Below are positions 2,467 through 50,219 of a stretch of DNA of 52,072 bases, piece by piece. Each line of letters begins with the position of its first letter. The first letter of the stretch is position 1. The notes under the pieces were generated by a model. That model saw nothing but the letters and a program-made list of their open reading frames with translations. It searched no databases and was not told the DNA's origin. The stretch is from a virus, in IMG/VR virus record IMGVR_UViG_3300013947_000055, positions 1-52,072 of that record. One strand, 5' to 3'. Both the position numbers and the translations under genes were made by a program.

Positions 2467-3275
2467 TCCCTGTATTTGTACCATCTTACCGGCGTCCTGA
2501 CGCCAAGTTCCTGCGGCGCAGCATGAACCAGAAGTTCCCGCTCTATGTCTTTGTCCGCAAGGAGGAGAAGGAAGCCTACTCCTGGATCAAAGCCAGACCC
2601 AACACCACCCTCGTCCTCATATCCAACGTGTCCAACATAGGTGAGACTCGCAGGGTCATGTTCAACTATGCAGTACACAAGGGCTTCGACAAGATCATCA
2701 TGCTCGACGATGACGTTACCCGACTTGACCTCTCCATGGTTGACCCAAAGTCCGGGAAGGTCAAGGCCTCCGGCAATGTCATCGGTTATGTGGAGGATTG
2801 GCATAAGGTGCTGCTGTGTTGGGAGGCAATCTGGACTGACGAAGCTATGCTGGGTGCAAGTTACCGTCCCTTTAGCTGGTCTCTTACCGAGGATGAGATC
2901 CCTATCCTCCGCAGATCCCAGCTCCAACAGGCTGTGGGGATCAACGTCAAGGCCATCCACAAGGCCGGTCTGAATTACCAGAGTAACGACCTTGTAGGCA
3001 ATGAAGATCTCTTCCTTCAGTTGGAGTGTTACCAGAAGGGACTGGAATGTGTCAAAACTAATGCAATCCAGTATGACTGTCCGGCCATGGGCGCGGGAAC
3101 AGGCGGTTGCAATGCGTCCGAGCTCGGCTCTATTCAGCAGAAGCAGCACAAGAGAGTAGCTCAGTTCGTGTTGGCCTGTAAGGATCCTACCCTTATCAAG
3201 ATCGCTAAGACTCGGTCAGGTGTGGAATCCGTCAAGTTCAACTGGAAAGCAATCAAATTCATCATGGAGGACTAA
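2463..3275 (+). CDS. GT-A-fold glycosyltransferase-like protein (TET/JBP-associated glycosyltransferase-like)
   Basis: ATGA overlap with upstream gene; N-terminal beta-strand IPVFVPSYRRP, DxD-type motif IIMLDDDV, later GNEDLF acidic motif. Confidence 0.45.
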   Translation: MIPVFVPSYRRPDAKFLRRSMNQKFPLYVFVRKEEKEAYSWIKARPNTTLVLISNVSNIGETRRVMFNYAVHKGFDKIIMLDDDVTRLDLSMVDPKSGKVKASGNVIGYVEDWHKVLLCWEAIWTDEAMLGASYRPFSWSLTEDEIPILRRSQLQQAVGINVKAIHKAGLNYQSNDLVGNEDLFLQLECYQKGLECVKTNAIQYDCPAMGAGTGGCNASELGSIQQKQHKRVAQFVLACKDPTLIKIAKTRSGVESVKFNWKAIKFIMED

Positions 3276-3278
3276 GAA

Positions 3279-3761
3279 ATGAATACTGACAAGCAATGGC
3301 TTGATATGGCATATAAGTACGCTATCGCTCACTCAGGTTGCCAGAAGGTCTCAGTAGGGTGTGTCATTACCAAGGGAGTCAACGGTACTGAAACTACTGC
3401 CAGTATGGGCGCAAACCGTACTCTTCCGCAGAACTGCAAGCTCATGGGATGCTGGCGTAAACAGATCCATGGGAATGACAGTAAAGCTCACCGTGGACCG
3501 GCTGATTGCATGGCTCTACACAGTGAGATCGACGCTTTAGCTATGGCAGCTCGTAACGGTGTGAGAGTGTTTGGCTCCACGGTCTATGTGACCCGCTACC
3601 CATGTGAGGCCTGTGCCCGAGCTCTCTGTGCTGCTGGAGTGGCTGAGGTCATTTATGGCGGTACAGCCGAGATCTCTATCATGACTGAACACATTTTCCG
3701 CAGCAACTGTGTAAAAGTACGTCACATCACCGACTGGATGGACGACAACTCTGACCGTTAA
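3279..3761 (+). CDS. dCMP/cytidine deaminase-family zinc enzyme
   Basis: RBS ggagg; HSEIDAL (H-x-E) and PCEACARAL (PCxxC) zinc/catalytic motifs; 160 aa. Confidence 0.8.
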   Translation: MNTDKQWLDMAYKYAIAHSGCQKVSVGCVITKGVNGTETTASMGANRTLPQNCKLMGCWRKQIHGNDSKAHRGPADCMALHSEIDALAMAARNGVRVFGSTVYVTRYPCEACARALCAAGVAEVIYGGTAEISIMTEHIFRSNCVKVRHITDWMDDNSDR

Positions 3762-4353: not shown

Positions 4354-6282
4354 ATGAAACTGAGTGAGTTTGATGCCCTTGTAGGTCAAGATAGTTACGT
4401 CCGCTGCATGGGCAAGAAGCGCCTTGATACTGCCATCGTGAATCAGGCCGCTGCTGATGCTCACATTTTCTCTGGTGGACAGATCGGCTGGTGGGTCAGG
4501 ACAGGGTACATAATTGTTGACATCGATGAGGGTAAGGCTCAAGCCCTTAAGATGATCAAACGCCTTGGTCTGAAGACCCTCATGGCTAAGACCCCGAAAG
4601 GGCTGCACTTGTACTTCAAGTGTGACAAAGACTACCCTCAGAAGGTCGGCATGATTCTCCCATGTGGTCTTAAGTGTGACTTCCGTTGTGCTAACAAGGG
4701 CTACGTCATCTTACCGTTCGGGTCTGAGAACCGTTCCTTTAACAAGTGCAGAGAGATAGCAGAGCTGTCCCCTGAGTGGACTCCTATGGTCAATCGTAAG
4801 GAGACTCTCCTTGGTCTTAAGGATGGTGATGGGCGCAATGCTACCCTCTTTGCTCACCTCATGGCCTATAAGAACAGGGGAGCTTCTGACCAGCAGATTG
4901 ATGAGATGGCTCACGCTATCAATGACATCATCTTCAGTGAGCCTATGGCTGACTCTGAGCTTGAGAAGATCATTGAGAACACCAAACGCTATGAGGCAGC
5001 TCATGAATTTGATAACCCCTATCTTATCTACAACAGCAAAGGTGTTCCCAACAGTGTCAACTACCGTGCCATCTGTGACTACTTTGTCAACCGTGGTGAC
5101 ATCTTTGTTCTGGGTGGTGAGTGCTACCTTTACAGAGAAGGTATTTACGCCGAGGCGAGTAGTTATGTACGCAATGCCATCAAGGACATGATTGTCGTAG
5201 ACCACCTTATCACACAGACCAGAATTATGGAGGCCTACCGCCTTATCTGTGACGACGTGCGCTTACAGCGGCTTCCCAGTCAGCTCAACCAGGACAAGAA
5301 CCTTATCAACTTTCAGAACGGGGTATGGGACATCGAGGCTCACAAGCTGTTGCCTCATGACAGCAAGTACCTCCAGACCCTACAGATCCCTCATGAAGTC
5401 GGCGAGTATGTACCCTTTAAGCAGACTCGGCTCTATGACTTCTTTAAGAAAACTAAACTCCCTACCGAAGACATCAAGATGCTCCTCAAGTATATGGCAT
5501 ACTGCATGACTCTTGACTACGGTCTTAAGACGTTCATGATCCTCTGTGGTCAGTCAAATACAGGTAAGTCAGTCCTGATCCGCTTCTTTGAGACCCTTGT
5601 AGGAAGACAGAATGTGTCCTCTTTGAGTATGCATGAGCTCAATATGCGGTTCTATCCGGCGCAGCTCTATAACCGGCTGCTAAACTCCTGTGCAGATAAC
5701 TCGTCCTTACCTCTGTCTTCTATTGAAAACCTTAAGAAGATCACCGGCGGTGACCAGATCATGCACGAGCGCAAGGGTAAAGAGCCGTTCTTCTTCGTAC
5801 CGTTCTGTAAGCTTATCTTCTCCTTTAACCAGCTTCCGCTCCAGTTGGAGGAAAAGTCCAACGCATTCTATAAGCGCATGAGGATCCTGTTTATGAACAC
5901 GGAGCTGTTCTTGAACAATGACTACGTGAATGACCTGTGCAGCGAAGAGGGTGTGTCCGAGGTCATTCCTTACCTGTTGTCCCTGTTACCGGTCAAGGAG
6001 ATTCCTCGTACCAGCCTGAGCGACAAGTACGTGGAGTCCCTCCGTCAGGATAGTGATAGCATCCACGCATTCCTCGCCAAGCACTGTGAAATGGATAGTG
6101 ACCTTACCGTCGAGAAGAACGCTTTGTATGAGTCCTATTGCCGGTTCTGTATCGATACCGGTCGAGAGTCTCACAAGAAGCATGCTTTTATGCGCAACAT
6201 ACGTGCTCAGGGCTTTAGAGAGATCCGTGACAGCAAGACCAGAGATTACCTCTGGGCAGGACTTGGACTTAAAGGGCGGTGA
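4354..6282 (+). CDS. Bifunctional primase-polymerase / D5-P4-type SF3 helicase
   Basis: N-terminal prim-pol motifs (IIVDIDEG, KGLHLYF); Walker A CGQSNTGKS in the C-terminal half; 642 aa. Confidence 0.85.
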   Translation: MKLSEFDALVGQDSYVRCMGKKRLDTAIVNQAAADAHIFSGGQIGWWVRTGYIIVDIDEGKAQALKMIKRLGLKTLMAKTPKGLHLYFKCDKDYPQKVGMILPCGLKCDFRCANKGYVILPFGSENRSFNKCREIAELSPEWTPMVNRKETLLGLKDGDGRNATLFAHLMAYKNRGASDQQIDEMAHAINDIIFSEPMADSELEKIIENTKRYEAAHEFDNPYLIYNSKGVPNSVNYRAICDYFVNRGDIFVLGGECYLYREGIYAEASSYVRNAIKDMIVVDHLITQTRIMEAYRLICDDVRLQRLPSQLNQDKNLINFQNGVWDIEAHKLLPHDSKYLQTLQIPHEVGEYVPFKQTRLYDFFKKTKLPTEDIKMLLKYMAYCMTLDYGLKTFMILCGQSNTGKSVLIRFFETLVGRQNVSSLSMHELNMRFYPAQLYNRLLNSCADNSSLPLSSIENLKKITGGDQIMHERKGKEPFFFVPFCKLIFSFNQLPLQLEEKSNAFYKRMRILFMNTELFLNNDYVNDLCSEEGVSEVIPYLLSLLPVKEIPRTSLSDKYVESLRQDSDSIHAFLAKHCEMDSDLTVEKNALYESYCRFCIDTGRESHKKHAFMRNIRAQGFREIRDSKTRDYLWAGLGLKGR

Positions 6283-7580: not shown

Positions 7581-7960
7581 ACAGAGTACCAGAAACTGCA
7601 AACACCTATGGTGTCTGTTGGTACTGTGGGAATACTGAAGGTCCGTTTGAGGTAGATCATGTATTCCCAAAGAGTTTAAGAAAAGACAATAGAAGGACTA
7701 ATCTGGTATGTTCCTGTAGAAAATGTAACAGAGAAAAGGGAGATAAAGCTCTGAGCTTTTTAGACCTGGAAGGAGAACCAGGATGGAGAGATCCCGATGT
7801 TATTGAGCAAGTTATAGATACCTATGCTCGTTTCTGTAGTGCTTTTGAGGAGGCACTTCCAGAAAAGTATGCTTCCTGGATCAAAAATCCCTTTGAGTCT
7901 TCTCATGTAAAATCTTTTAAGGAGGAACTTTCTCATGAGCTACCAGTTTGCCACGATTGA
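7577..7960 (+). CDS. Free-standing HNH endonuclease
   Basis: CWYCGNTEGPFEVDHVFPKS...NLVCSCRKCNREKGDK = classic HNH (CxxC...DH...N...CxxCN). Confidence 0.85.
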   Translation: MNRVPETANTYGVCWYCGNTEGPFEVDHVFPKSLRKDNRRTNLVCSCRKCNREKGDKALSFLDLEGEPGWRDPDVIEQVIDTYARFCSAFEEALPEKYASWIKNPFESSHVKSFKEELSHELPVCHD

Positions 7961-10001
7961 CATTGAAACTACTGGTCTTAACCGGTACAAAGACCGTATT
8001 ACATGGATTGGCGTCGGGCTTGCCAAAACTGTTGATGATGACCTGTCTAAGATTCTCATCTACGATGGCTCCAGCGAGGCTGATATGCGCAAGTTCCGTA
8101 ACGTCATGAAGCACGTCCGGGAAGCCAAGGCCAAGACTGTGTTCCAGAACGGTAAATTCGACACCCTCTTCATCGAGCACCATCTCGGTCTCAAGATCCC
8201 CATCCATGAAGACACGATGCTGATGGGTACAGCGTACGATCTTGTCGCTGAGCACGGTCTTAAAGCCATGGCTAAATCCTACCTTGGTGTACCTGACTGG
8301 GACATCAAGAAGAAGGACAAGCTCAGCGGTGATAAGGATACCATTGTTCCCTACCTGAAGTGTGACGTCAAGTACACATGGCAGCTCTATCAGTACCTGT
8401 GCTGCAACATGACCTCCCGACAGATGAAGCTCTACCGGGAGCTGCTCAGACCCGCTTATAGAGCATACAGAGACATTGAGCGCAATGGCCTCTACATTGA
8501 CCTTGATGCCTTACGGTCTGTACGCAAGAAGTACAATACTCAGGAGAAGAAGCTGCTTGCAGAGCTCAACAAGCACGCAAAGATCAACTGGAATAGCTCT
8601 GCACAGGTGGCAAAAGTGTTCTACGAACAGGAGAAAATGCCCATCATCAACTGGACAGCCAAGGGAGCTCCATCCATTGCTGCTGACGTTCTTAAGGAAC
8701 TCTCCATGCAGGGATATGAGACCCCGAAACTGCTGCTTGAGTACAAAGACGCTGCTACTCGTAACAAAATGTTCCTCAATCGTTGGGAGGACGACTGCTA
8801 TGAGAGCCGCATCCACCCGAGCTTCAATCTTACCAACGTGGTCTCAGGCAGAACAAGCTGTCTTACTGGGGATACTCCAGTGATGATTCCAGGGGGGTAT
8901 AAGCCCATTAAAGACATCAAAGTTGGAGACCTTGTGTATGGGTTTGACGAGAACCTAAAACCAAGACTATGCAAGGTCTCTTTTAGTGGGTGTACAGGAG
9001 TACGAGATGATGTGTACAGAGTTTGGTATAAGTCTCAAGGGACTCATGAGCTGAAGTACATAGACGCTACTTCTGATCATCTTGTACGGCTTACCTCTGG
9101 AGACTACCGAAGAGTTGATCAGTTGCATTGTAAAAAGAGAGATAGAGACCATGTACTTGCAATAGAACGTGGGTTCAAAGGAAGCAGAGAAAATCCACGT
9201 GGATATAGGATTTATCCAACAGGATGTGACACAGAGTTAGAGCATGTCTTTATCTTTAAGGAGCTACATGGGTACACTCCAGAGCATGTGCACCACAAAG
9301 ATGAAAATCCTCTGAATGATGAACCTGAGAATCTCATTGGACTCTCCGTAAGTGATCACGCAAGACTCCACATTCAGGAAAAGGGTGCTGACTGGCATAA
9401 GAAAGGAAATGCAGCTTCCTTAAAGACACGACAGAGTAAGGAATATAAAGAGTCCCTACATAGCTCAATTATGGAGTCCCGTTTATCCAAGAAAGACCTT
9501 GTAAAGGCTCTTAAAGAGGGTAACGGTCTGGTAGGAGCTGCTAAACTCCTTGGGAGAGACATCGGCTTTGTTGGTAATCGGATGAAGTACTATGGAGTAA
9601 CCTATGATGGTCGTTCTCATCGTAAAAAGAATAACCACACCATTTGGAAAGTAGAAAAACTTCCAGGAAAGTATGGAGTGTATGACATTTCTGTACCGGA
9701 AACTGAATGCTTTATTGCTAATGGAATCTGTGTCCATAACTGTAACAATCCCAACCTCCAGCAAGTACCCAGAACCAAGGACATCCGAGGTCTGTTTGCG
9801 GGCGCTCCAGGCATGATCCTCTTCGAGGCGGACTACTCTCAGTTGGAGCTACGCATTGCTGCTCACTACGCCAACGAGAAGACCATGCTGGACATTTACC
9901 GTAACAATGGTGATATTCATACTGAGACAGCCAAACTCTTTACCAACGGTCGCGCTCCTACTAAGGAGGAGAGAGGGAAAGCCAAGGCCGTGAATTTCGG
10001 T
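7935..10001 (+). CDS. DNA polymerase I (family A), exon 1, including an in-frame intein (8859..9740)
   Basis: RBS aaggagg; Exo I ATIDIETTG, Exo II NGKFDTLF, Exo III YLKCDVKY; motif A ILFEADYSQLELRIAAH; ends KAKAVNFG (first half of motif B). The TAA at 10002..10004 is intron sequence. Confidence 0.9.
8859..9740 (+). mobile_element. Intein (294 codons) with HNH homing-endonuclease domain, inserted in SGRTS|CNNPNLQQVP
   Basis: Starts CLTGDTPV (block A), TSDH (block B), VYDISVPETECFIANG (block F), ends GICVHN followed by +1 Cys; internal HVHHKDENPLNDEPENLIGLSVSDHARLH. Confidence 0.85.
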
Positions 10002-10633
10002 TAACCTACAAAGTAAGGCCGAATTAAAATCCCCTCAAAACGGTTGACCCTAAACGGAAACATATGGGAATCCCGTGCCTGTGTAAAAGCAGTGTGTAAC
10101 GACTTATCATGAATCGCTATCCTATGGATAAATCAATCGAATTCATGTATACGGGGGACAACGAAATCTGTGTAAGAAAGGAGGTATCTTGTAATGGCTT
10201 ATGCAAAAGTAACCTGTACAATCTGTGGTAAACAGTTCCAGCAAAAGAGCTGGAATCAGCATTTATGCTCTGATAAGTGTAGAACTGAGTTCTACGCGAG
10301 AAAAGGGCTTACTCGTATCTATGAGAATGGTAAATACGTAAAACATGGGTATGATCAAAAAGGAGAAAAGAATAACGCTTGGAAATATGGTTGTGCTTAT
10401 CGTCATCTTATTTCTATGGAACACTGTGAATGGTGTGGATCTACTAAGAACTTACTGGTACACCATAAGGATGGAGATCATAAACATAATGAAGTAAGCA
10501 ATCTGGTATGTCTTTGTAAAAGATGTCATCAGCAGTACCATTGCAAGAGAGATTCTCTCGGGAGATACACTACACATCGTTGAAGGTATAGTCTAGACCC
10601 CTAATAAATATCGGGAAACCGAGGGTATTATCG
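10002..10633 (+). mobile_element. Group I intron (632 nt) splitting polymerase motif B (NFG|FLYGM)
   Basis: Exon 1 ends in T (10001) that can form a U-G pair within P1: exon ttcggt (9996..10001) with intron gccgaa (10018..10023). Intron ends in G (10633). GAAA-tetraloop hairpin tcgg-gaaa-ccga 10611..10622. Joining 10001 to 10634 restores the frame and KAVNFGFLYGM. Confidence 0.75.
10194..10583 (+). CDS. Intron-encoded HNH homing endonuclease
   Basis: Own RBS aaaggagg; CTICGK...CSDKC zinc finger; LLVHHKDGDHKHNEVSNLVCLCKRCHQQYH HNH motif. Confidence 0.85.
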   Translation: MAYAKVTCTICGKQFQQKSWNQHLCSDKCRTEFYARKGLTRIYENGKYVKHGYDQKGEKNNAWKYGCAYRHLISMEHCEWCGSTKNLLVHHKDGDHKHNEVSNLVCLCKRCHQQYHCKRDSLGRYTTHR

Positions 10634-11155
10634 TTTCTATATGGTATGCAAGCAAAGAAGTTCGTCAAGTATGCTCTGGACAGCTATGGTCAAGTCTTTA
10701 CTCAGCGAGAGGCTGAGCACATCCGTGACCTGTTCTTTGCAAAGTATGCTCGGCTGTTACCTTGGCATAAGGAACAGGAAGATCTCTGTGAAATGCAGGG
10801 CGGCGTGGCGAATATGTTTGGTCGCTTCCGCAAGCTCCCTCTCATCTATTCCGCAAACAAGTGGGAACGGGCAAGTGCAGCTCGCCGTGCTATCAATACT
10901 CCAGTTCAGGGTTCAGGGTCTGATCTACTGATCTCTGCTGTGACCCAGATTAATAGGGAGCTCAAAGGTGTGGCATGGATCGGCGCTACTGTACACGACT
11001 CCATTATCGGTGAGTGCCGAGTTGAGGACAAGGACTTTGTGGATGAGACCATTCGCAGGGTCATGAAGCACCCTAAGGTCTTGGATGACTTTGGTGTTGA
11101 GCTCAGAGTGCCCTTGGATGTGGACATCGGATGGGGTCCTTGGGGAACTCACTAA
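10634..11155 (+). CDS. DNA polymerase I (family A), exon 2
   Basis: In-frame FLYGMQAKKF completes motif B; motif C ATVHDSIIGE; the ORF-track ATG at 10646 is internal to the exon. Confidence 0.8.
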   Translation, partial: FLYGMQAKKFVKYALDSYGQVFTQREAEHIRDLFFAKYARLLPWHKEQEDLCEMQGGVANMFGRFRKLPLIYSANKWERASAARRAINTPVQGSGSDLLISAVTQINRELKGVAWIGATVHDSIIGECRVEDKDFVDETIRRVMKHPKVLDDFGVELRVPLDVDIGWGPWGTH

Positions 11156-14664: not shown

Positions 14665-15045
14665 ATGGACAAGATTAAGATCCACGAGCAGCTCTGCAAG
14701 GAAATGCATGAGCTGTACGAACGCAAGAATGCAGACTACGGGGATAGTTTTGCTCAACTCCGCAAGCGTTACCCGAACTTTGTCTGTATGCGCCTGTTTG
14801 ATAAGCTCAACCGTCTGGATACTGTCATCCAGCCTGAGTACGCGCTCAAGGTCTCTGATGAGACTGTTGAAGATACCCTCATGGACATTGCCAACTATGC
14901 CATCATGGAGCTGACTGAGCGTAGAGCAGCTCGTGAGGGGCTGAAGGAATCTATGTTTGCACAGGACGGCTGTAAGCCCTGCAATGAATCGATCAGGCCT
15001 CCTAACAAGTTGCCGGTGAACCTGACGACAGGAGGTTACAGATGA
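14665..15045 (+). CDS. DUF1599 (nucleotide modification associated domain 1), all-alpha NTP-PPase-like
   Basis: RBS aaaggag; ERKNADYGDSF, RLFDKLNRLDTV, EDTLMDIANYAIMEL match my recollection of DUF1599; translationally coupled (ATGA) to the ThyA-family gene. Confidence 0.65.
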   Translation: MDKIKIHEQLCKEMHELYERKNADYGDSFAQLRKRYPNFVCMRLFDKLNRLDTVIQPEYALKVSDETVEDTLMDIANYAIMELTERRAAREGLKESMFAQDGCKPCNESIRPPNKLPVNLTTGGYR

Positions 15046-15770
15046 TTTCTATCTATCAGGGCAGAAGCGTCAATGATGTCTGGCAACAGGCATTCGCAGA
15101 CCTCATCAAACAGGCTTCTGAGGGCTTTGAGAATGGCTCTCGGGATGGTGCAGTGGTCGGTGAAGTCATCAATGCTGCATTCTGTGTCGAAGACCCTACC
15201 CGTAACATTGTCACCAGTAAGTACCGCAAACTGCCTATGCGCTACGCAGTTGGTGAGCTGCTGTGGTATCTGTCTGGGTCTAACAAGACGACAGACATTG
15301 CTCAGTTCGCTCCTAAGTGGAATGAGCTCTCTGATGATGGTGTCCACGCAAACTCCGCCTATGGATACCGCATCGGCAAGAAGTTCGGCTTTGATCAGTG
15401 GGCTTATGCGGTTGATCTGCTCCGCAAAGACCCTGATAGTCGTCAGGCGGTTATCCACATTAAGGACGCTGACAATGCCAAGACCAAGGATCTGCCTTGC
15501 ACGGTCTACCTCCAGTTCCTGATCCGTGAAGGTAAGCTCCACATGATGGTGCACATGAGATCCAACGACATTTGGATGGGTGTTCCTTACGACATGTTCA
15601 GTTTCTGCTCCATGCAGATGCTGATGGCTATGCAGCTTGGAGTACAAGTCGGCAGTTACACTCATTATGCAGGCTCTCTGCACCTCTACAAGAGGGACTA
15701 TGAGACTGCCAAACACAACATGGAGGAGCTGAACCCCTATGGCAATACCCAGAGACGAGAAGCTCATTAA
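15042..15770 (+). CDS. Thymidylate synthase-family pyrimidine C5 (hydroxy)methylase, predicted dCMP-specific
   Basis: Catalytic Cys in DLPCTVY (15498..15500); ELLWYLSG, NSAYGYR, DPDSRQAV, MRSND; Asp184 (gac 15591..15593) in GVPYDMFS at the position of ThyA Asn177 / T4 dCMP hydroxymethylase Asp179. Confidence 0.75.
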   Translation: MISIYQGRSVNDVWQQAFADLIKQASEGFENGSRDGAVVGEVINAAFCVEDPTRNIVTSKYRKLPMRYAVGELLWYLSGSNKTTDIAQFAPKWNELSDDGVHANSAYGYRIGKKFGFDQWAYAVDLLRKDPDSRQAVIHIKDADNAKTKDLPCTVYLQFLIREGKLHMMVHMRSNDIWMGVPYDMFSFCSMQMLMAMQLGVQVGSYTHYAGSLHLYKRDYETAKHNMEELNPYGNTQRREAH

Positions 15771-38718: not shown

Positions 38719-39570
38719 TTACCCGACGTTTTCGACGATGAAGTCGGCCACCTGTTTCAAATGGTCTCTCTCCGTCCTCTGAAGGACGCTCAGCCACTCC
38801 GACGGGATCTGGGTACACCCACACCGAGCTCCAGCTAAACCGCCCGCCAGCGCCGCGATGGTGTCCGAGTCGCCACCGTCATTCACCGCCGCGATGATGG
38901 TGTCCCGGAACGTGCGCCCGCCTCGGTTCCACCAGATGGCGTTCCGGAGGGTATTCTCCACGTGACCGGTAGGAGTAGTCTTGGTCAGCGGCGGGAGAGC
39001 GTTGCTCGGGGCGAGCTTGGTGAGGCACGTCCACAGAGCGTGATAGTACTGCCGGACTGCGTAGTCACAGATGTCGTTGGTGTGAGTAAGCTGAGACTGC
39101 ATCACAGCCAGCTCCTCCTGACCCATCAGGCACGGCACGAGACATCTCATCAGGCCACCATTGCCAAGGTCTTGAATCTTACAGGACTTCTGACTGAACT
39201 CGTTGTTCCAAGACCAGTCATTCCAAGGTTTACCCTCGTTACGGATAATAGACCGGTAACAGGTGTTGCCCACATCCTTCGGCTTGGTAGCAAGCCAGTT
39301 CTCAAAGTTTGTGCAGATGCCCTGCATAACGGTGTTCTCGTTAGGCCAGTTGTCCATGATGGCGTCAGCCACACAGAGAGTCATCTGAGTATCGTCAGTG
39401 ACCTCTCCGGCCTTGAGCTGTAACCAACCGCCACCAATAATCTGGTCAACCTGACCGTACCGAGCTTGGATGTTTGCAGCAGTCATGAACTCAGTGGTAG
39501 CACCCATGGCGTCACCGATAGCGAACCCGTACAGAGCTCCAAGGACTTTATCGTACTTTAAGGTATTCAT
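38719..39570 (-). CDS. ADP-ribosylglycohydrolase (DraG/ARH family)
   Basis: RBS gggaggagg; N-terminal GALYGFAIGDAMGATTEF signature; C-terminal GGDSDTIAALAGGLAGA metal-binding motif. Confidence 0.85.
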   Translation of the reverse strand: MNTLKYDKVLGALYGFAIGDAMGATTEFMTAANIQARYGQVDQIIGGGWLQLKAGEVTDDTQMTLCVADAIMDNWPNENTVMQGICTNFENWLATKPKDVGNTCYRSIIRNEGKPWNDWSWNNEFSQKSCKIQDLGNGGLMRCLVPCLMGQEELAVMQSQLTHTNDICDYAVRQYYHALWTCLTKLAPSNALPPLTKTTPTGHVENTLRNAIWWNRGGRTFRDTIIAAVNDGGDSDTIAALAGGLAGARCGCTQIPSEWLSVLQRTERDHLKQVADFIVENVG

Positions 39571-39772
39571 CACAGGATCCTCCTCCCAAGACTTTAGTCG
39601 GCTTCAGGGTAAACTTCTTACAGCGAGCAGTATTACCAAAGACCTTATTGTCAGGGAATCTGTAGCCACAGTCCTTACAAACGAGATCGTTGTTGGTGAT
39701 ACGCACGCAAGCCCGAGCCTCAGATGCGATACGCTGCTTCATGCTCTTGTCAGAGCTTTTCTTAGCACTCAT
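39548..39772 (-). CDS. Hypothetical zinc-ribbon protein
   Basis: VCKDCGY...ARCKKF...GGGSCDEY; own consensus promoter and aaggagg RBS. Confidence 0.55.
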   Translation of the reverse strand: MSAKKSSDKSMKQRIASEARACVRITNNDLVCKDCGYRFPDNKVFGNTARCKKFTLKPTKVLGGGSCDEYLKVR

Positions 39773-39839: not shown

Positions 39840-41420
39840 TTACGGAAGTATCTCCAGATACATACGGATGCTTGAACTCATGTGACCGTCAGACTCCTCA
39901 ATCCTTAGAATTCGTACCTGTGTGCCAGCATTCAAGAGAGTCTCACCCTCTGCTGTACCGAATTGAGAAATACCCATAATGGACGACGCCTGTGTACCCT
40001 CAGGGGCATAGAACACAACTTCAACTGGACCAGAAAAGCCCTTGTCCCACATGGATGAGGTACTCGTAAAACCCTTGTACTCACCAATAGTGTTTGCATA
40101 CAGCTTGTTGAGCTTACTTGCAGACATCTGTTCGAGTTCCCACTGGGTCTGGTCAAAATCCTTTGCACCGATAAGGCCAGCCAGATCGCCAAGGTCTGTA
40201 CCCCGTCTAAGGACGGCAGGACGTTCAAAGGCAGACTTTGAGAGCGCTTGCTTTGCAGCTTCGATCTGTTCAGCTTCTCCAGGTCTAAGGTCAGACCGAG
40301 TACCTCTCAAGTACCCGTTCCAGCGTCTATAGGAGCTGCCTGTATACGTGCGGAGTGCATCCTTTTCGACACCTGTAAACTTCTCAAAGTTGGCTGCCTC
40401 AATGTCGAGCATGTCCTGAAGCTCAACCTGTTTGATGATGTTAGTCCAGTCCTCGGCAGAAGGGATGTTACCACTTGTGTTAGCCATCTGGGACGCCCGC
40501 TGCACGTTAGGGAGATTCTTTGCATCAACCCCCATGCTCTCCAGCCACTTGTCTATATCCGAGTCGGCGTTACCCAAAGCCCAGTCAGCCAGCCGGTTAG
40601 AAATATCAACCATATTCCCACTGAGCACGGCCTCAAAGGTACACATTCCATTAGGATGGTCGAGTGGGAGTTTATCCTTGGGATAGTGCTGACCATCACG
40701 AGCCGCACAGATCTCACACATCCGCTCACCACCAGACGACAGCCAGATGTACTCTGTCACGAAGGGATTATTCTGGGTCGTCCTAACGAATGCCTGTTGA
40801 TAGGCATGGGATACCATGGTGCGAGCCAACCTCTGTGCAGAGTAGTCCACCTTACGCCTTGTACCGGGATAGACCTTGTTCCAGTCCCAGTCCTTCCTTG
40901 CGTCTGGTTTTAGGTACTTCTCCAAATCCTTGGCAATATCGTAAGCACTCTTGTTGGCTGCTATACCTGTAGCGACCACTGTGTTGATGTCGTACTGGGT
41001 CTTCATGTGGTCTTTCCAGAGGGCACGGCTCAGTGACCATTTACCCTCATAAAGCTGACCCGTAGCCACCATCTTGACGATCTCAGTCGGGACTTTGGAG
41101 TAAGCACCCTCAATGGTAAGGCCAACATTCTTGAGGAACTGTAAGTTGTCCTTGACCACTGCCTGAGCAGCCGACTCCATGTTGTCATAGATCTCACCCT
41201 TGAGAGCTTGCTCAGCAGTGGTAAGTTGTGCTTTAAGTTCCTTCTTGAGCTTATTGAGCTCGGACTTGTACAGAGGAGAGGACGGCGTGTTAGGCAAAGA
41301 CCTCGCCTTTCTACCAACAGACAGAGCAGCATTCTTGTAGATCTGGGCAATATGCTTCTGCTGCTTCTGGGTCAGGCTGACCCTTGCCTGTTGCGCTGTA
41401 TTCAAGTTGAGCTTTGCCAT
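39840..41420 (-). CDS. MuF/SPP1 gp7-like minor head protein fused to a C-terminal ADP-ribosyltransferase toxin domain
   Basis: Position right after the portal. N-terminal half with CEICAARDGQHYP (MuF-like). C-terminal ART triad: YTGSSYRRWNGYLRG...VLRRGTD (Arg), GFTSTSS (STS), TAEGETLL (ExE). Confidence 0.8.
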   Translation of the reverse strand: MAKLNLNTAQQARVSLTQKQQKHIAQIYKNAALSVGRKARSLPNTPSSPLYKSELNKLKKELKAQLTTAEQALKGEIYDNMESAAQAVVKDNLQFLKNVGLTIEGAYSKVPTEIVKMVATGQLYEGKWSLSRALWKDHMKTQYDINTVVATGIAANKSAYDIAKDLEKYLKPDARKDWDWNKVYPGTRRKVDYSAQRLARTMVSHAYQQAFVRTTQNNPFVTEYIWLSSGGERMCEICAARDGQHYPKDKLPLDHPNGMCTFEAVLSGNMVDISNRLADWALGNADSDIDKWLESMGVDAKNLPNVQRASQMANTSGNIPSAEDWTNIIKQVELQDMLDIEAANFEKFTGVEKDALRTYTGSSYRRWNGYLRGTRSDLRPGEAEQIEAAKQALSKSAFERPAVLRRGTDLGDLAGLIGAKDFDQTQWELEQMSASKLNKLYANTIGEYKGFTSTSSMWDKGFSGPVEVVFYAPEGTQASSIMGISQFGTAEGETLLNAGTQVRILRIEESDGHMSSSIRMYLEILP

Positions 41421-45736: not shown

Positions 45737-46474
45737 TTATTCTTCCTCGTCTTTACCTGTACTATCCTTGCGTCTACCACGAACGATGTTGATCGTAAGC
45801 TCATCGTCACCACCAGAGTCCTCAAGGAGCTTCTTCTTGAGCTCAAACTCCTCACGCTTCATGGCAATCTCAGCATGGATCTTCTGGATCTCGGCAAGCT
45901 CCTTACTGGATACCCACTTAGACCCGCAAGCGCAATCCAGAACGTGTCTTGCACCATTCGCACCGTCACGATCGTACAAGCGCTTCTCGGCGTATGCCTC
46001 AATCCTTTGCTTGGCTCTTGTCAATGCGCGTGAGAAAGTTAAGATATCATCCGTGTCGCACCTTAACTCATCCAAGATCGGGTCTACGTCGCCGTCTCTA
46101 TACATGAGAATCGATCCCGTTGTAATTCCCATGTGATACGCAAACCCTGACATGGTATAGGGCTCGACTTGACCCGTAAGAATCTCGCCGTGCTTGTCCC
46201 GCTGTAAAGTGCCATACTTGTCAAAGATAGGACCATTACAAGAATCAAAGTACCCGTCGATTCTGGCCTGTAAATCTTCTGCAGAATAGAAATAAATTCT
46301 TCGACCGGGATTGTGAGTCATGCCAACTTTCCCCGGCAACCGGATACCCCTAAAGTCAACCACAAGATGCCTGTCGTCGACCCATCTTGACCGTACCACA
46401 GGATGCCTTGGCACTCTGATTGTGACCTCCTCATAAGGCTGCTCCCAGGGTCTGGGGGGCTTTTTCTTAGGCAT
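45737..46474 (-). CDS. terS: Terminase small subunit (tentative)
   Basis: First gene of the late arm; VEPYTMSGFAYHMGITTGSILMY resembles the HTH segment of P27-type small terminases. Confidence 0.5.
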   Translation of the reverse strand: MPKKKPPRPWEQPYEEVTIRVPRHPVVRSRWVDDRHLVVDFRGIRLPGKVGMTHNPGRRIYFYSAEDLQARIDGYFDSCNGPIFDKYGTLQRDKHGEILTGQVEPYTMSGFAYHMGITTGSILMYRDGDVDPILDELRCDTDDILTFSRALTRAKQRIEAYAEKRLYDRDGANGARHVLDCACGSKWVSSKELAEIQKIHAEIAMKREEFELKKKLLEDSGGDDELTINIVRGRRKDSTGKDEEE

Positions 46475-46529
46475 ACATATCCTCCTTCCGAATACTGTTA
46501 GTATTCATCTATCTCAACTTTCCACATAT

Positions 46530-46558
46530 ATTATACTATTAGTATTCGGAAAAGTAAA
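46530..46558 (-). promoter_or_regulatory. Late-arm promoter gcTTTACTtttccgaat-N-TATAAT with embedded palindrome
   Basis: Minus strand: -35 TTTACT (46553..46558), 17-nt spacer, -10 TATAAT (46530..46535). Palindrome atactattagtat at 46533..46545 and a near copy atactgttagtat at 46492..46504 in the 5' UTR. Confidence 0.7.
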
Positions 46559-46559
46559 G

Positions 46560-47300
46560 CACATTTTCCGTCCATTTTCACCCCATCTTGTCGAAAAAAT
46601 CTCATTTTACTCCTCCGAGTTATGATTTCGTTTGGGCAGTTTTATTTTCCATCTTGGAAAAGTTCATTTTCGTCTCCAAGATTCCTCCGAAAATCCACCC
46701 AAAGGAATTTTTTCGAACCCGGAAAATCGGTCACTTTTCGATTTTTCCACCGCGACGATTTTCGATTTTACTCCACCCTCACCACCTGCCATTTTCCCAA
46801 GTTACAAGATCACTTTTTCCGCGAAAAAAAGTCGGATTTCTTGTGTTTCCGCCTTTTTTTGAACTCATAAAAAAGTCGGACCACCTTGTGAGCACCCCTC
46901 CCTTCCTTGTATATTACTCCATGGAGAAATGCAAAAAAAGTCGGATTCGCCCAAGATGAGCCCAAGATCTACAACGACTTTTTTTACTCCTTCTTACTTC
47001 ATTAAGAGAATAAAATTTAATATATTAAACAAAAGTTAAGCAGCATAAAACATAACATTTTCCCTTAATTAAAAAATCCGGGGCAAAAAAAGTCGGACTC
47101 TTCCGCCTGTAATTCTCTATAAAAACACCACCTTTTTCACCCTTTTTATCATTACTCCACGGAGTAATATCCTTGTAATTTCACAAGCCCCACAAGACCT
47201 CCACTTCCGCTCGTTCCGACTTTTTTTGAACCCGTTTTTACATTCCACGCCTTTTTTACCGTTTCCTCATGGAGTAATGAACAAGATTCCAACCCCGCCA
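46560..47300. repeat. Repeat-dense, ORF-poor divergence region (candidate replication origin / regulatory hub)
   Basis: A6-7GTCGGA boxes at 46824..46836, 46869..46880, 46933..46945, 47085..47097 (+) and 47215..47227 (-), plus a degenerate copy at 46973..46985 (-). ATTACTCC/GGAGTAAT motifs include the inverted repeat 47151..47168. Many CAyTTTyC repeats. AT-rich core with 14-nt palindrome tttaatatattaaa at 47016..47029. Confidence 0.75.
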
Positions 47301-47363
47301 CACCGAAAACCCTACTCTCCCTAAGAGTTTCCCACCTCAACTGAAAATCTTTACAAAAAGGGC

Positions 47364-47392
47364 TTGCTTTTTCCGAAAAATGAGAGTATGAT
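47364..47392 (+). promoter_or_regulatory. Early promoter gcTTGCTT-N17-TATGAT
   Basis: -35 ttgctt 47364..47369, spacer tttccgaaaaatgagag, -10 tatgat 47387..47392; 50 nt upstream of ATG 47443. Confidence 0.7.
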
Positions 47393-47442
47393 GAATTCAT
47401 AAATCAAGCAGCTCACACAAATCTACACTATAGGAGGCCACC

Positions 47443-47799
47443 ATGTCTACCACTACCCCCACTACCCCCATCCGTCCCAGCACCAACGCCTACAACCTCA
47501 AGGCAAGGCTGTTCAGTTGTAAGTACAACGACATCGTCAACATCCCTGCCTACGAGAACGCCTCCGGCGACCGCAGAATCGCCTACAACCTGTACCACAT
47601 CTACCTCCGTGACTGTGCCGAGATGGAGAAAGCAACCTCATCCCTGACCACTCTTCCCCCTATTATCACGAGCCCGTCCATCCGCTGCGCTGTCAACAAG
47701 ATGCTCAAAGAGTCCGACACTGAGCTCGAGTCGTTGGTCAGTCATCTGGAGAACCTTACCTACAACCCCGACACACGTGACTGGGAGGCCAGAAAATGA
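47443..47799 (+). CDS. Hypothetical early protein
   Basis: RBS taggagg; first gene of the early arm. Confidence 0.65.
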   Translation: MSTTTPTTPIRPSTNAYNLKARLFSCKYNDIVNIPAYENASGDRRIAYNLYHIYLRDCAEMEKATSSLTTLPPIITSPSIRCAVNKMLKESDTELESLVSHLENLTYNPDTRDWEARK

Positions 47800-47951
47800 T
47801 CACTCTCACCACCTCACAGGTCATCTTCATCACCATTGGAGTTTCCACAACGGTCAACACCCTGTGTAAGTTCCTGTTCATGCTGGACACTCCCCGCCGC
47901 TCCCGCAGCCACACCACCAACCGCCACAACCATCACACCACCAACCACTAA
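47796..47951 (+). CDS. Small membrane protein (51 aa), not in the ORF track
   Basis: ATGA coupling; hand translation MITLTTSQVIFITIGVSTTVNTLCKFLFMLDTPRRSRSHTTNRHNHHTTNH: one TM helix plus a basic tail. Confidence 0.4.
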   Translation: MITLTTSQVIFITIGVSTTVNTLCKFLFMLDTPRRSRSHTTNRHNHHTTNH

Positions 47952-47963
47952 GGAGGATCGACA

Positions 47964-48524
47964 ATGTACTATGGCAACATCAAGGACTGTGACATCGCCA
48001 ACGGAGAGGGGGTAAGAATTTCCCTGTTCGTGTCGGGATGCACAAACCACTGCCGAGGCTGCTTCCAGCCCGAGACGTGGGACTTCAAGTATGGCAGTCC
48101 ATTCACTTTCAAGGTACAGGATGACATCCTGAGTATGCTCGCACCATCCTATATCGATGGTCTCACCGTCCTGGGAGGCGAACCCTTTGAGCCGTCCAAT
48201 CAGCACTCCCTCCTGCCGTTCCTGGAGCTGGTACACAACATTTACCCCGACAAGACCATCTGGATGTACACAGGCTTTACCTACGAGGACCTCATCACTC
48301 CCGGAGCTCATCCTCACACTGCTATCACCAGCAAGATCCTCGGTCTCATCGACGTCCTTGTAGATGGTCCATTCGACATCGACCAGAGCGACATCTCACT
48401 CAGGTTTAGAGGCTCACGCAACCAGCGCATCATCGACGTACCACCTACGCTCTCCACGGGTCACGTAGTCCTTTACGACGAGGTCGCACATCATCCCTGG
48501 ATGACCAAGCACTCCCAGTTCTGA
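47964..48524 (+). CDS. nrdG: Anaerobic ribonucleoside-triphosphate reductase activating protein (radical SAM)
   Basis: RBS taaggagg; DCDIANGEGVRISLFVSGCTNHCRGCFQPETW (CxxxCxxC) and GLTVLGGEP, collinear with T4 NrdG as I recall it. Confidence 0.85.
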   Translation: MYYGNIKDCDIANGEGVRISLFVSGCTNHCRGCFQPETWDFKYGSPFTFKVQDDILSMLAPSYIDGLTVLGGEPFEPSNQHSLLPFLELVHNIYPDKTIWMYTGFTYEDLITPGAHPHTAITSKILGLIDVLVDGPFDIDQSDISLRFRGSRNQRIIDVPPTLSTGHVVLYDEVAHHPWMTKHSQF

Positions 48525-48533
48525 GGTGCAGTC

Positions 48534-48779
48534 ATGTATCACTTTGAGTTGTTACCTCGCGCCCCCGGTCATCCCACACAACCCTGTCAGCGGGATTGTC
48601 CAAACCGGACGGCAACCTGTAAACCTACCTGTCCTAAGTGGACCGAGTACGAGGCTGCCCTCACCGCGTGGAGGGCGTCCACTCACCCGGAGACACTTTT
48701 CCTCACAAGTACATACACCGCCGCAAAGGAGTCCAAATTCCGTCAGTTTTCCAAGACGAAAAAGCATCACTACCGCTGA
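48534..48779 (+). CDS. Hypothetical Cys-rich small protein
   Basis: PCQRDCPNRTATCKPTCPKWTEYE pattern; RBS gaggtg. Confidence 0.55.
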   Translation: MYHFELLPRAPGHPTQPCQRDCPNRTATCKPTCPKWTEYEAALTAWRASTHPETLFLTSTYTAAKESKFRQFSKTKKHHYR

Positions 48780-48912
48780 CCACCCCCACACCTACCTCAC
48801 CCCCTCCGCTGACGAAATCGTCCTGTAAAACCACCCGAGAATCAGGACTTTCGGATCGCACCCGTCCCCCACACCCCCGCGCACACTATATCACCGAAAG
48901 GAGACCACTATC

Positions 48913-49176
48913 ATGAAGTTAACCCCTATAACAGTCGAGGAGGCTCATAAAGTCCCCAAACACAAGCATGACGCGCCCTGTAATGACGTCCTCGGCACAC
49001 TGAACCAGTTCATTGTATCTGGTAAAGAGGCCGCCCTTGTCGAGGTCACACCGGGAGACTACACAAGCGTTCACTCAGCGTTCTCGTCCTTCTACAAGGC
49101 CATCAAGACCAAGAACTACCCCGTCACGGCAGAACTCAGGTCTGGCTGCCTGTACCTGTACCGAACCCACATTTAA
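48913..49176 (+). CDS. Hypothetical protein
   Basis: RBS aaaggag; 87 aa. Confidence 0.6.
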   Translation: MKLTPITVEEAHKVPKHKHDAPCNDVLGTLNQFIVSGKEAALVEVTPGDYTSVHSAFSSFYKAIKTKNYPVTAELRSGCLYLYRTHI

Positions 49177-49194
49177 GAAAGGAGACTTACCCAC

Positions 49195-49431
49195 ATGAAC
49201 AGCATCAACATCGGTCTTGGCAACTTTGTCAACAGTGACCACGTCATCGCCATTGTGAGCCCTGAATCGGCTCCGGTCAAGCGCCTCGTACAGGACGCCA
49301 AGGACAACAACCGTGTCATTGACGCCACCTATGGTCGCCGCACCAGATCTGTCGTCATCATGACCAACGGCACAGTCGTGCTGTCGGCCAGCCAGCCCGC
49401 AACCATCATCGATCGCAACAACAAAGACTAA
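49195..49431 (+). CDS. RemA-like (DUF370) DNA-binding regulator
   Basis: [68 protein letters not shown] is collinear with B. subtilis RemA as I recall it. Confidence 0.8.
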
Positions 49432-49454
49432 CTACACTGTAAAGGAGAACAACC

Positions 49455-49829
49455 ATGACAGACTTAGAACTCACCAACCACATTCACGACATCCTCAAGG
49501 ATTTAGGATGCCCCATCAGCATGAGTGGCTTCGATTATGTCACCTACGGCGTCAAGCTCATGTACAATTCCTCACGCAGACTTGCCATCACCAGAGAGCT
49601 GTATCCCGCCATCGCATCTCAGTATAACACCACGGACACTAGGGTCGAGCGTTGCATCAGAACCTTTGTCCAGACCACTCTGGACCGAGGCTCCTATGTG
49701 GACATTCACAAGGTGTTCGGCAATGTCTTCCGTGACAAGTCCGGCACTATTGTCAATGGTGACTTCTTGTATGGTCTCAAGTATGAGCTTGAGCGCCGGA
49801 TCCAGGCAGAGGAGAAGAGCTGTGATTAA
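49455..49829 (+). CDS. Spo0A C-terminal (effector/DNA-binding) domain protein without receiver domain
   Basis: ITRELYPAIASQYNTTDTRVERCIRTFVQTT matches the Spo0A_C recognition helix region (ITK-LYPDIAKK-NTT-SRVERAIRHAIE). Confidence 0.8.
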   Translation: MTDLELTNHIHDILKDLGCPISMSGFDYVTYGVKLMYNSSRRLAITRELYPAIASQYNTTDTRVERCIRTFVQTTLDRGSYVDIHKVFGNVFRDKSGTIVNGDFLYGLKYELERRIQAEEKSCD

Positions 49830-49830
49830 G

Positions 49831-50004
49831 ATGATAGTCCTTTCAGAGGACGACTACAATGCAGTCCTTGCTCAGCTTAATGATGCAAGAGTTGTATGTG
49901 CTGAAGCTCAGGCTGCAAGATTCACTGCCACTCACACCTATTATCTGTCAGAAATTGACAGACGACTGGAGTCTATTCAGGGTATTTTGAAGAAGGGGGA
50001 ATAA
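49831..50004 (+). CDS. Hypothetical small protein
   Basis: ATG 2 nt after the upstream stop; the ORF-track version (49525..) overlaps the Spo0A-like gene out of frame. Confidence 0.45.
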   Translation: MIVLSEDDYNAVLAQLNDARVVCAEAQAARFTATHTYYLSEIDRRLESIQGILKKGE

Positions 50005-50006
50005 TT

Positions 50007-50219
50007 TTGGTTACTTTACGAGTATTCCTGAAGTCAGGTCAGAGCTTTGACATTCGTGCCGAAGGTGGTAGCTGTGGCTACAACACCCTTACTGGAGAGC
50101 TGAAGTCATTCAAGTATGAGGGTGCTGTCGCCGATATTCCGATCTACCTGAATCCTACACAGGTGGAGGCCATCGTGCAGGTGCATAAGGATGACGAGGA
50201 GGAGGGACTCCTGAAATGA
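50007..50219 (+). CDS. Hypothetical small protein (TTG start)
   Basis: RBS aaggggg 8 nt upstream of the TTG. Confidence 0.45.
   Translation: MVTLRVFLKSGQSFDIRAEGGSCGYNTLTGELKSFKYEGAVADIPIYLNPTQVEAIVQVHKDDEEEGLLK

Follow-up and report, generated by a model that had tools for sequence, protein, structure and literature searches.

What would a phage gain from carrying, side by side and in one operon, close relatives of two host developmental regulators, and do these proteins act on the host or on the phage itself? The question is raised by IMG/VR virus record IMGVR_UViG_3300013947_000055, of which we analyzed positions 1 to 52,072; this whole stretch of 52,072 nucleotides is referred to below as the window. 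On its plus strand, the window encodes a relative of the biofilm-matrix regulator RemA (49195..49431) and, after a spacer of 23 nt, a stand-alone DNA-binding effector domain of the sporulation regulator Spo0A (49455..49829), here called Spo0A_C. We report that RemA is fixed across the whole clade of related phages and that Spo0A_C appears to be an exchangeable module within it.

The first of the two genes encodes a protein of 78 residues and is preceded by a ribosome-binding site (AGGAGA, 49180-49185) located 9 nt 5' of the ATG. The protein matched Pfam family PF04025 with an E value of 5.1e-32 (110 bits; cut-off, 26) and the NCBIfam model PRK04323 with 107 bits (cut-off, 87), while it remained under the cut-off of the RemA equivalog model NF046064 (112.2 bits versus 140) and was matched by the RemB model at an E value of 0.006 only. 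Among PDB sequences, it aligned with RemA of Geobacillus (GtRemA; PDB 7BM2) at an E value of 5e-22 and about 50% identity, and the same structure was the sole significant Foldseek match (template modeling [TM] score, 0.92) of its AlphaFold (AF2) model, which had a predicted local distance difference test (pLDDT) score of 90.2. The protein contains the motif DATYGRRTR as well as an 18-residue motif quoted in an earlier note on this DNA, which had been made from the sequence alone. In the alignment, R50, R51, and R53 of GtRemA correspond to R48, R49, and R51 of the phage protein; these residues are invariant in 32 phage sequences, and the DNA-binding loop GRRTR is unvarying in the same set and identical in bacterial RemAs. 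R50 and R51 of RemA are needed for DNA binding, and mutation of R50/R51/R53 abolishes DNA binding by GtRemA (PMC8481266). As judged from sequence and model, the 78-residue protein is thus a RemA-family DNA-binding protein, with a fold and three DNA-contacting arginines that match those of the ring-forming Geobacillus protein. A chromosomal context rule has been given for remA, with the order yloC/csiA-remA-gmk-rpoZ (bioRxiv 10.1101/2020.02.25.964569); this neighborhood is absent here, and the gene sits in the early operon of the phage.

The second gene encodes 124 residues and likewise has a ribosome-binding site (AGGAGA, 49443-49448), 6 nt 5' of its ATG. Its product matched PF08769 in Pfam with an E value of 1.8e-22 (79.8 bits; cut-off, 25) and the Spo0A C-domains 1LQ1 and 1FC3 among PDB sequences with an E value of 3e-13; the last two structures were also the only significant Foldseek matches of its AF2 model (pLDDT, 90.8; TM scores, 0.81-0.89). 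The NCBIfam Spo0A model TIGR02875 aligned over its positions 145-248 of 262 only, scoring 71.2 bits, below the equivalog cut-off of 200, and it follows that the phage protein has no receiver. A Pfam scan of the 124 residues found no Response_reg domain, and all cellular Spo0A homologues compared have both PF00072 and PF08769. We therefore read the protein, on sequence and model, as a complete six-helix Spo0A effector domain with its helix-turn-helix, minus the phospho-receiver. It contains the motif ELYPAIASQYNTTDTRVERCIR, and its recognition helix reads T-R-V-E-R-C-I-R. Cellular Spo0A DNA-binding domains are near-invariant (PAHIKGY...SRVERAIRHAIEVAW...TNSEFIA); of this, the phage proteins retain the first part of the recognition helix (R-V-E-R-x-I-R) and, beyond it, F/G and N..F. 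Phage residues E65, R66, I68, and R69 correspond to E213, R214, I216, and R217 of Bacillus subtilis Spo0A and are invariant across the 22-26 phage and cellular sequences aligned. Since the core of the recognition helix is kept, DNA binding by the phage Spo0A_C is very likely. The isolated DNA-binding domain of Spo0A binds its legitimate targets without phosphorylation (PMC3485338), and it is plausible that the receiver-less phage domain would bind DNA constitutively and be able to override host sporulation control.

Both genes are functional, as indicated by their ribosome-binding sites and by purifying selection: compared with two close relatives, the ratio of nonsynonymous to synonymous substitution rates (dN/dS) was 0.00-0.10 for the RemA-like gene and 0.16-0.22 for Spo0A_C. 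The earlier note had called the 78-residue protein a RemA homolog and the 124-residue protein a Spo0A C-terminal domain without a phospho-receiver, encoded by adjacent early genes, and had proposed profile searches as a check. Scores far above the family cut-offs, fold matches to 7BM2 and to 1FC3/1LQ1, and the incomplete TIGR02875 alignment bear out these identifications; the adjacency on the plus strand is equally clear, with "early" being read from position and from a promoter recognized by eye.

The distribution of the two genes proved to be very different. We sampled the clade through two independent markers, the neighboring HD phosphohydrolase gene and the small terminase gene terS. RemA was present in 12/12 same-group loci reached through the HD phosphohydrolase and in all 17 evaluable loci reached through terS (terS identity of at least 44%), and it was absent from all more distant HD-bearing phages sampled. 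Nearly all of the best 120 database RemA homologues (60-94% identity) lie on contigs of 45-65 kb, and automatic annotation by JGI already labels some of the viral copies RemA. In a neighbor-joining tree with the 80 closest bacterial RemAs, which are 53-64% identical and come mostly from gut Clostridia and Oscillospiraceae metagenome-assembled genomes, the window protein and 19 IMG/VR sequences formed a purely viral clade of 20. RemA is therefore a lineage-defining gene, fixed across the whole phage clade. Spo0A_C, in contrast, was found in 4/12 of the HD-sampled and 6/17 of the terS-sampled loci, always 3' of RemA and at distances of 0.02-2.3 kb, and among GenBank phages the RemA-bearing and the Spo0A_C-bearing contigs do not overlap; the pair is no fixed unit. 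Between the window and a close relative (L019, 1799-2436), DNA identity is 98.3% in RemA and 89.2% in the adjoining Spo0A_C, a jump that indicates recombination with a junction in or near the 23-nt spacer. By its sequence distribution, Spo0A_C is an accessory, mosaic, and exchangeable module carried by about one-third of the clade members. The fixation of RemA favors an indispensable role, and the patchiness of Spo0A_C favors a conditional, host-directed one.

Three sister phages, L236, L237, and L240, gave no RemA match even at E values of up to 100 with filters off. In two of them, L237 and L240, the early genes start with one of the sigma-70 family (Sigma70_r2, 28.4 bits; cut-off, 24), and a SpoIIID-like gene lies beside DUF2786 (PF12116, 30.2 bits; cut-off, 27); in L237, these genes lie at 5272-5808 and 1159-1419, respectively, both on the minus strand. 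In this broader phage group, the early region is thus a slot filled by differing host-type developmental or global regulators across lineages, a pattern that fits either reprogramming of host development or recruitment into the phage's own program. In the same early stretch of one clade member (L056), we also saw a small zinc-ribbon open reading frame (ORF) that is NrdR-like by eye only.

Between terS on the minus strand and the early operon on the plus strand lies a divergent non-coding control region of 968 bp (46475..47442), packed with repeats. The terS gene bordering it (45737..46474, minus strand) was assigned by PHROG (phrog_606; E value, 1.1e-9) and scored 23.6 bits against Pfam GP3_package, under the cut-off of 29.4. 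Within the control region, the pentamer TTTTC is ten-fold enriched, and a search for known RNA families over 46300..50100 returned no Rfam match at an E value of 1 or below. The region's most conspicuous feature is an array of 13-nt boxes, AAAAAAAG[T/G]CGGA, which spans 46824..47227 and occurs only here in the 52 kb, with boxes at 46824-46836, 46868-46880, 46933-46945, and 47085-47097 on the plus strand and at 46848-46860 and 47215-47227 on the minus strand. The string AAAGTCGGA has exactly five copies in the window, all inside 46828..47223, and the generalised box AAAAHRGKCGGA has seven matches, all inside 46567..47226, a number reached by 0/100 shuffles. Related phages share the architecture, with 5-16 boxes per array, and throughout the clade the boxes belong to a single 13-nt family, AAAAA[A/T/C][A/G]G[T/G]CGGA, at the same position. 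We conclude from these sequence comparisons that the whole lineage has A-tract/GKCGGA boxes in its control and packaging region. The sister phages share this feature: box arrays are also present in all three RemA-less genomes, and L237 and L240 keep 15 AAAAATCGG boxes 5' of terS. A division of the boxes into protein-linked specificity classes (GTCGGA, TAGGCG, TTAGGCG, and TCGG) was considered and rejected, since no protein's identity tracks box type and L027 mixes the variants, holding AAAAATAGTCGGA, AAAAATAGGCGGA, and AAAAACGGTCGGA side by side.

The control region also has palindromes of the form ATTACTCC-NN-GGAGTAAT at 46913-46930, 47151-47168, and 47261-47278, often 30-50 nt 3' of a box. 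From phage to phage, the two arms change together and stay complementary (ACTCC/GGAGT, TACC/GGTA, ACTTC/GAAGT, and TCTCC/GGAGA), which points to a hairpin or cruciform more than to a protein site of fixed sequence. The region's best sigma-70-like promoter, TTTACT-17-TATAAT (46558-46530, minus strand), lies just 5' of terS, and a 19-nt inverted repeat, TTCCGAATACTGTTAGTAT / ATACTATTAGTATTCGGAA (46486-46551), brackets it and looks like an operator. When 67 box instances across the clade were searched for promoter elements at a fixed distance 3' of the box, no positional signal appeared outside the box itself, and the stretch 46550..46830 had no 10-bp periodicity of RemA-style AT-rich repeats.

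The relation of these boxes to the 0A box bound by Spo0A was examined by counting. The earlier note had pointed to a perfect 0A-box heptamer, TGTCGAA, at 46589..46595, and the heptamer is indeed there, on the plus strand and as the single copy in the control region; its occurrence is unremarkable, however, as the window holds nine copies against 6.6 expected and 21/100 shuffles reach nine. Canonical 0A boxes were accordingly rejected as phage targets. The note's repeated A(6-7)GTCGGA boxes do exist and occur only where described above, but their likeness to the 0A box is weak: the core AGTCGGA matches it at 5/7 positions, a match that would arise by chance with a probability of 0.01-0.17 under the different null models, and the clade's most frequent version, AAAAATAGGCGGA, matches at 4/7 only. 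Moreover, the same box family occurs in clade phages without Spo0A_C (11/17 of those sampled through terS).

The account that we prefer, and to which we would give about an even chance, is that the two proteins act early in infection and bind DNA constitutively as regulators, with RemA essential to the lineage and Spo0A_C a signal-independent occupant of Spo0A-type sites. Right after infection, host RNA polymerase would transcribe both genes from a sigma-A-type early promoter, and, as both products lack a domain for signal input, their DNA binding should be constitutive. Since every clade member has RemA and the phage copies form a viral branch of their own, RemA most likely meets a constant need of the phage; we picture it as a DNA-wrapping transcriptional or architectural regulator. 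Spo0A_C would occupy Spo0A-type sites independently of the phosphorelay and thereby override or block the host sporulation decision during lytic growth, a hypothesis already proposed for gut-phage spo0A.

Several observations weigh against this account. With any cellular Spo0A, the phage Spo0A_C shares just 25-36% identity, and the second half of its recognition helix (HAIEVAW in cellular proteins) is not conserved; the helix that corresponds to the sigma-A-contacting region of Spo0A has diverged as well. Both the DNA specificity of the phage protein and its ability to activate transcription may thus differ from those of Spo0A, and because the protein has diverged beyond R-VER-IR, faithful mimicry is no given. 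The inter-subunit salt bridge R18-D59 of the GtRemA ring interface, which sets the geometry of the 8-mer, is replaced by H16/T57 in the window RemA, which makes its oligomeric state uncertain. In the clade as a whole, R16 always occurs with D57, and H or Q at position 16 pairs with D, T, V, or I, consistent with an interface that is conserved in the clade and has drifted in the species of the window. The early timing of both genes is inferred from position and from a promoter read by eye, and the label "virulent," probably correct, rests on the absence of evidence for lysogeny genes. Finally, the closest bacterial RemAs were uninformative as a guide to the host, with gut Clostridia/Oscillospiraceae at 53-64% identity and Bacillus at about 58%.

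Among the competing explanations, one to which we would give somewhat less than an even chance is that the box array is unrelated to either protein and marks either the DNA that the small terminase recognizes (pac/cos-type repeats) or an origin of replication whose iterons surround an AT-rich core. The array is unique within the genome and lies directly 5' of terS in every clade member and, as seen through terS, in the RemA-less sister phages; inverted boxes at 46975-46985 and 47085-47097 flank about 90 bp of very AT-rich DNA, and the assemblies are circularly permuted. Because the array always adjoins terS and inverted boxes surround an AT-rich core, a terminase recognition site or an origin is at least as likely as a platform for transcription factors. 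Yet 5-16 copies in both orientations over 0.4-0.9 kb are more than typical pac/cos sites have, the terS protein (32-57% identity) is far more variable than the box, and several boxes sit just 5' of -35-like hexamers (e.g., TTGTGA-18-TATATT, 46886-46915), as would suit promoters. The opposite view, which we consider improbable, makes both proteins the phage's own transcription factors on 46475..47442, with Spo0A_C reading AGTCGGA as variant 0A boxes and RemA wrapping the A-tract array in an early-to-late switch. The confinement of the boxes to the control region speaks for it, as do tandem boxes at 10-12-bp spacing in some clade members. The specific contacts of Spo0A in TGTCGAA are G2, C4, and G5, all kept in AGTCGGA (PMC3485338), and B. 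subtilis RemA binds multiple AT-rich repeats upstream of promoters (PMC8481266). Recognition helix and box also seem to covary: phages with a GTCG-only core (the window, L021, and L029) all carry an R-VER Spo0A_C, and in those with AGGCGGA/TTAGGCG boxes the helix reads T[VI]ER or KVER, or Spo0A_C is missing altogether. This covariation, however, is based on two independent lineages, and L027, in which a canonical SRVER Spo0A_C stands beside a mixed array of AGTCGGA, AGGCGGA, and CGGTCGGA, blurs the rule. A single box family is conserved clade-wide, with its variants tracked by no protein's identity, and it persists in the phages without Spo0A_C and in the sisters that lack RemA even at permissive thresholds; with the weak 0A-box similarity and the missing 10-bp periodicity, this argues against the earlier note's suggestion, offered there as speculative, that the proteins act on the phage's own boxes.

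RemA might instead be directed at the host, either turning on the genes that host RemA controls (those for matrix and surface polysaccharides) or poisoning host RemA rings by co-assembly, so that together with Spo0A_C it would form a two-part hijack of host development; we regard this as rather unlikely. The matrix operons of B. subtilis are controlled by both Spo0A and RemA (PMC8481266), remA/ylzA is a sporulation-signature gene (PMC9332280), and an Arg-to-Pro mutation in ylzA was found in a phage-resistant isolate of Paenibacillus larvae (PMC11257554). The phage protein is 50-64% identical to bacterial RemAs with an identical DNA-binding loop, and its ring-interface residues differ from those of GtRemA, a difference that could alter assembly. 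Against such a role, host-manipulating accessory genes are usually patchy, and RemA is universal in the clade and has long diverged as a separate viral branch; in addition, RemA function beyond Bacillus is essentially uncharacterised. That the two ORFs are functionless remnants of captured host genes, decaying or hitch-hiking, is suggested by nothing except their small size and is effectively refuted by intact reading frames with ribosome-binding sites, dN/dS values of 0.0-0.22, invariant catalytic and DNA-contact residues, and identical proteins on at least 20 contigs from different samples. A bolder and decidedly speculative reading is that this widespread gut siphovirus lineage of about 50 kb has turned RemA, a ring-shaped DNA wrapper, into a regulator that it cannot do without and that acts on the A-tract/GKCGGA array as an early-to-late or packaging-linked nucleoprotein switch, similar in function to phi29 p6/p4, with Spo0A_C, SpoIIID-like proteins, and sigma factors as interchangeable modules of the early slot. 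If so, phage "sporulation genes" would be primarily phage transcription machinery and not tools of host manipulation.

The genome around the locus is that of a phage throughout. The exact RemA-like and Spo0A_C proteins were recovered from more than 20 contigs of different samples, and twelve contigs of about 51-52 kb, from at least 12 samples, represent the phage with differing break points, i.e., circularly permuted; none of the contigs exceeds 200 kb. Its protein-level relatives are uncultivated phages from human feces, and no near-identical DNA was found in GenBank phages. From 46474 downward, the minus strand encodes terS, a Bro-N/anti-repressor-like gene, TerL, an SPP1-type portal, and a MuF/ADP-ribosyltransferase protein, followed by capsid, tape measure, tail, and lysis genes. 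The plus strand, from 47443 across the ends of the window to about 18 kb, encodes small early genes, RemA and Spo0A_C, a DUF2786 protein, the HD phosphohydrolase, a protein with a SleB/CwlJ-type Hydrolase_2 domain, a 5-hydroxymethyluracil (5-hmU) DNA kinase, and a TET/JBP-associated glycosyltransferase (Pfam TAGT), and further on a dCMP deaminase, D5 primase, PolA, a ThyA-like enzyme, and an SNF2 helicase. The genome yielded no integrase or CI-type repressor, and the window no tRNAs. With a full phage gene complement and neither of these lysogeny genes, the window is a complete, probably virulent siphovirus of about 52 kb from gut metagenomes, with probably hypermodified thymidine.

The candidate sigma-A-type early promoter, TTGCTT-17-TATGAT (47364..47392, plus strand), was recognized by eye 5' of the first plus-strand gene at 47443; L027 has TTTACT-17-TATAAT at the homologous position, and no plus-strand terminator was predicted between the candidate promoter and the RemA and Spo0A_C genes. 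Directly 5' of RemA lies a conserved gene (48913..49176, plus strand) whose 87-residue product has no match in Pfam or PHROG and whose homologues (family 3) occur in 14 of 22 related RemA loci. Two genes 5' of RemA in the same operon, an NrdG-like radical S-adenosylmethionine activase (47964..48524; Fer4_12, E value of 2e-46) was observed; NrdD was not detected within the window, and the activase gene suggests an anaerobic host. A thymidine-hypermodification set at 1456-3761, with a further part at 15042-15770, comprises the helical domain of 5-hmU DNA kinase (HMUDK_hel), TAGT, dCMP deaminase, and a gene resembling thymidylate synthase. Thymidines of the phage DNA are thus probably hypermodified, in which case each A7/T7 tract of a box would hold a cluster of modified bases. 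Among the replication genes and outside the lysis cassette, 767-1459 encodes a 230-residue protein with a C-terminal Hydrolase_2 domain of the SleB/CwlJ spore-cortex-lytic family (27.9 bits; cut-off, 27), the third sporulation-associated homologue in the phage. On the minus strand, 39840-41420 encodes a MuF-like head protein fused to an ADP-ribosylating exotoxin domain (ADPrib_exo_Tox), adjoined by an ADP-ribosylglycohydrolase gene (38719-39573); the two may form an ejected toxin with its antidote. At 7935-11155, the PolA gene is apparently split or interrupted, with weak intein/HNH matches inside a 689-residue ORF and a separate 169-residue DNA_pol_A fragment 3' of it.

The idea that phages carry regulators of sporulation is recent and has so far come from bioinformatics only, and the locus offers a compact, testable case: two small, easily purified proteins predicted to bind DNA, a control region of 1 kb rich in repeats, and naturally occurring phages that have or lack each gene. 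What looks new is the fixation of RemA throughout one lineage, together with its replacement by a sigma factor and a SpoIIID-like protein in the sister phages. Whether such genes manipulate host sporulation and biofilm formation or have been recruited into the phage program bears on how the "auxiliary" sporulation genes of gut viromes are read. No report of a phage-encoded RemA was found in the literature searched, and RemA as a conserved phage gene, which appears to be unreported, seems the more interesting part of the locus; the phage protein would be a first handle on RemA function beyond Bacillus.

RemA (YlzA) of Bacillus was reportedly described earlier by Winkelman in 2009 and 2013. With the Bacillus/Geobacillus protein (Hoffmann et al. 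2021, PMC8481266; 7BM2), the phage copy has in common the fold, R50/R51/R53, and most of the invariant core of the family; it differs in its length of 78 residues with a short C terminus, in having H/T for R18/D59, in lacking the remA-gmk-rpoZ neighborhood, and in scoring 112 bits against 140. The comparison of Spo0A_C with cellular Spo0A of B. subtilis and Clostridia (1FC3 and 1LQ1) is similar: the six-helix effector fold is common to both (TM, 0.81-0.89), and R211-V-E213-R214-x-I216-R217, F236/G237, and N249/F252 are kept, whereas the phage protein has no receiver, has PAHIKGY and HAIEVAW replaced, stands outside the chromosomal spo0A context, and scores 71 against 200 bits.

Truncated spo0A homologues have been reported in human-gut phages, with a bypass of host signals proposed (Schwartz et al. 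2023, mBio, PMC10294663), so that the Spo0A half of our finding, including its interpretation, is already published. The window phage shares with those the stand-alone receiver-less effector, the origin in uncultivated gut phages, and the proposed phosphorelay-independent logic. That study surveyed 29 virome sequences without genomic context of the kind given here, and neither it nor its supplements mention remA/ylzA; what our analysis adds is that Spo0A_C is a mosaic accessory of one clade, 25-36% identical to cellular Spo0A, in an early-operon slot filled differently elsewhere. Phage sporulation sigma factors and SpoIIID-like genes (PMC10294663 and works cited there) resemble RemA and Spo0A_C as host-type developmental transcription factors in Firmicutes phages, and the sisters L237 and L240 carry a sigma factor and a SpoIIID-like gene in the same early region, but the protein families are different; expression of phage sigF/sigG homologues has reportedly been tested in B. 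subtilis. A functional parallel is phi29/Nf (Castilla-Llorente et al. 2009, PMC2731898), as phi29 is lytic on a spore former and couples its development to the Spo0A system, and its divergent early/late control region, with regulator sites and the architectural proteins p4 and p6, can be likened to that of the window. Whereas phi29 relies on host Spo0A and bona fide 0A boxes of its own genome, the window phage, in which canonical 0A boxes are not enriched, brings its own regulator domain.

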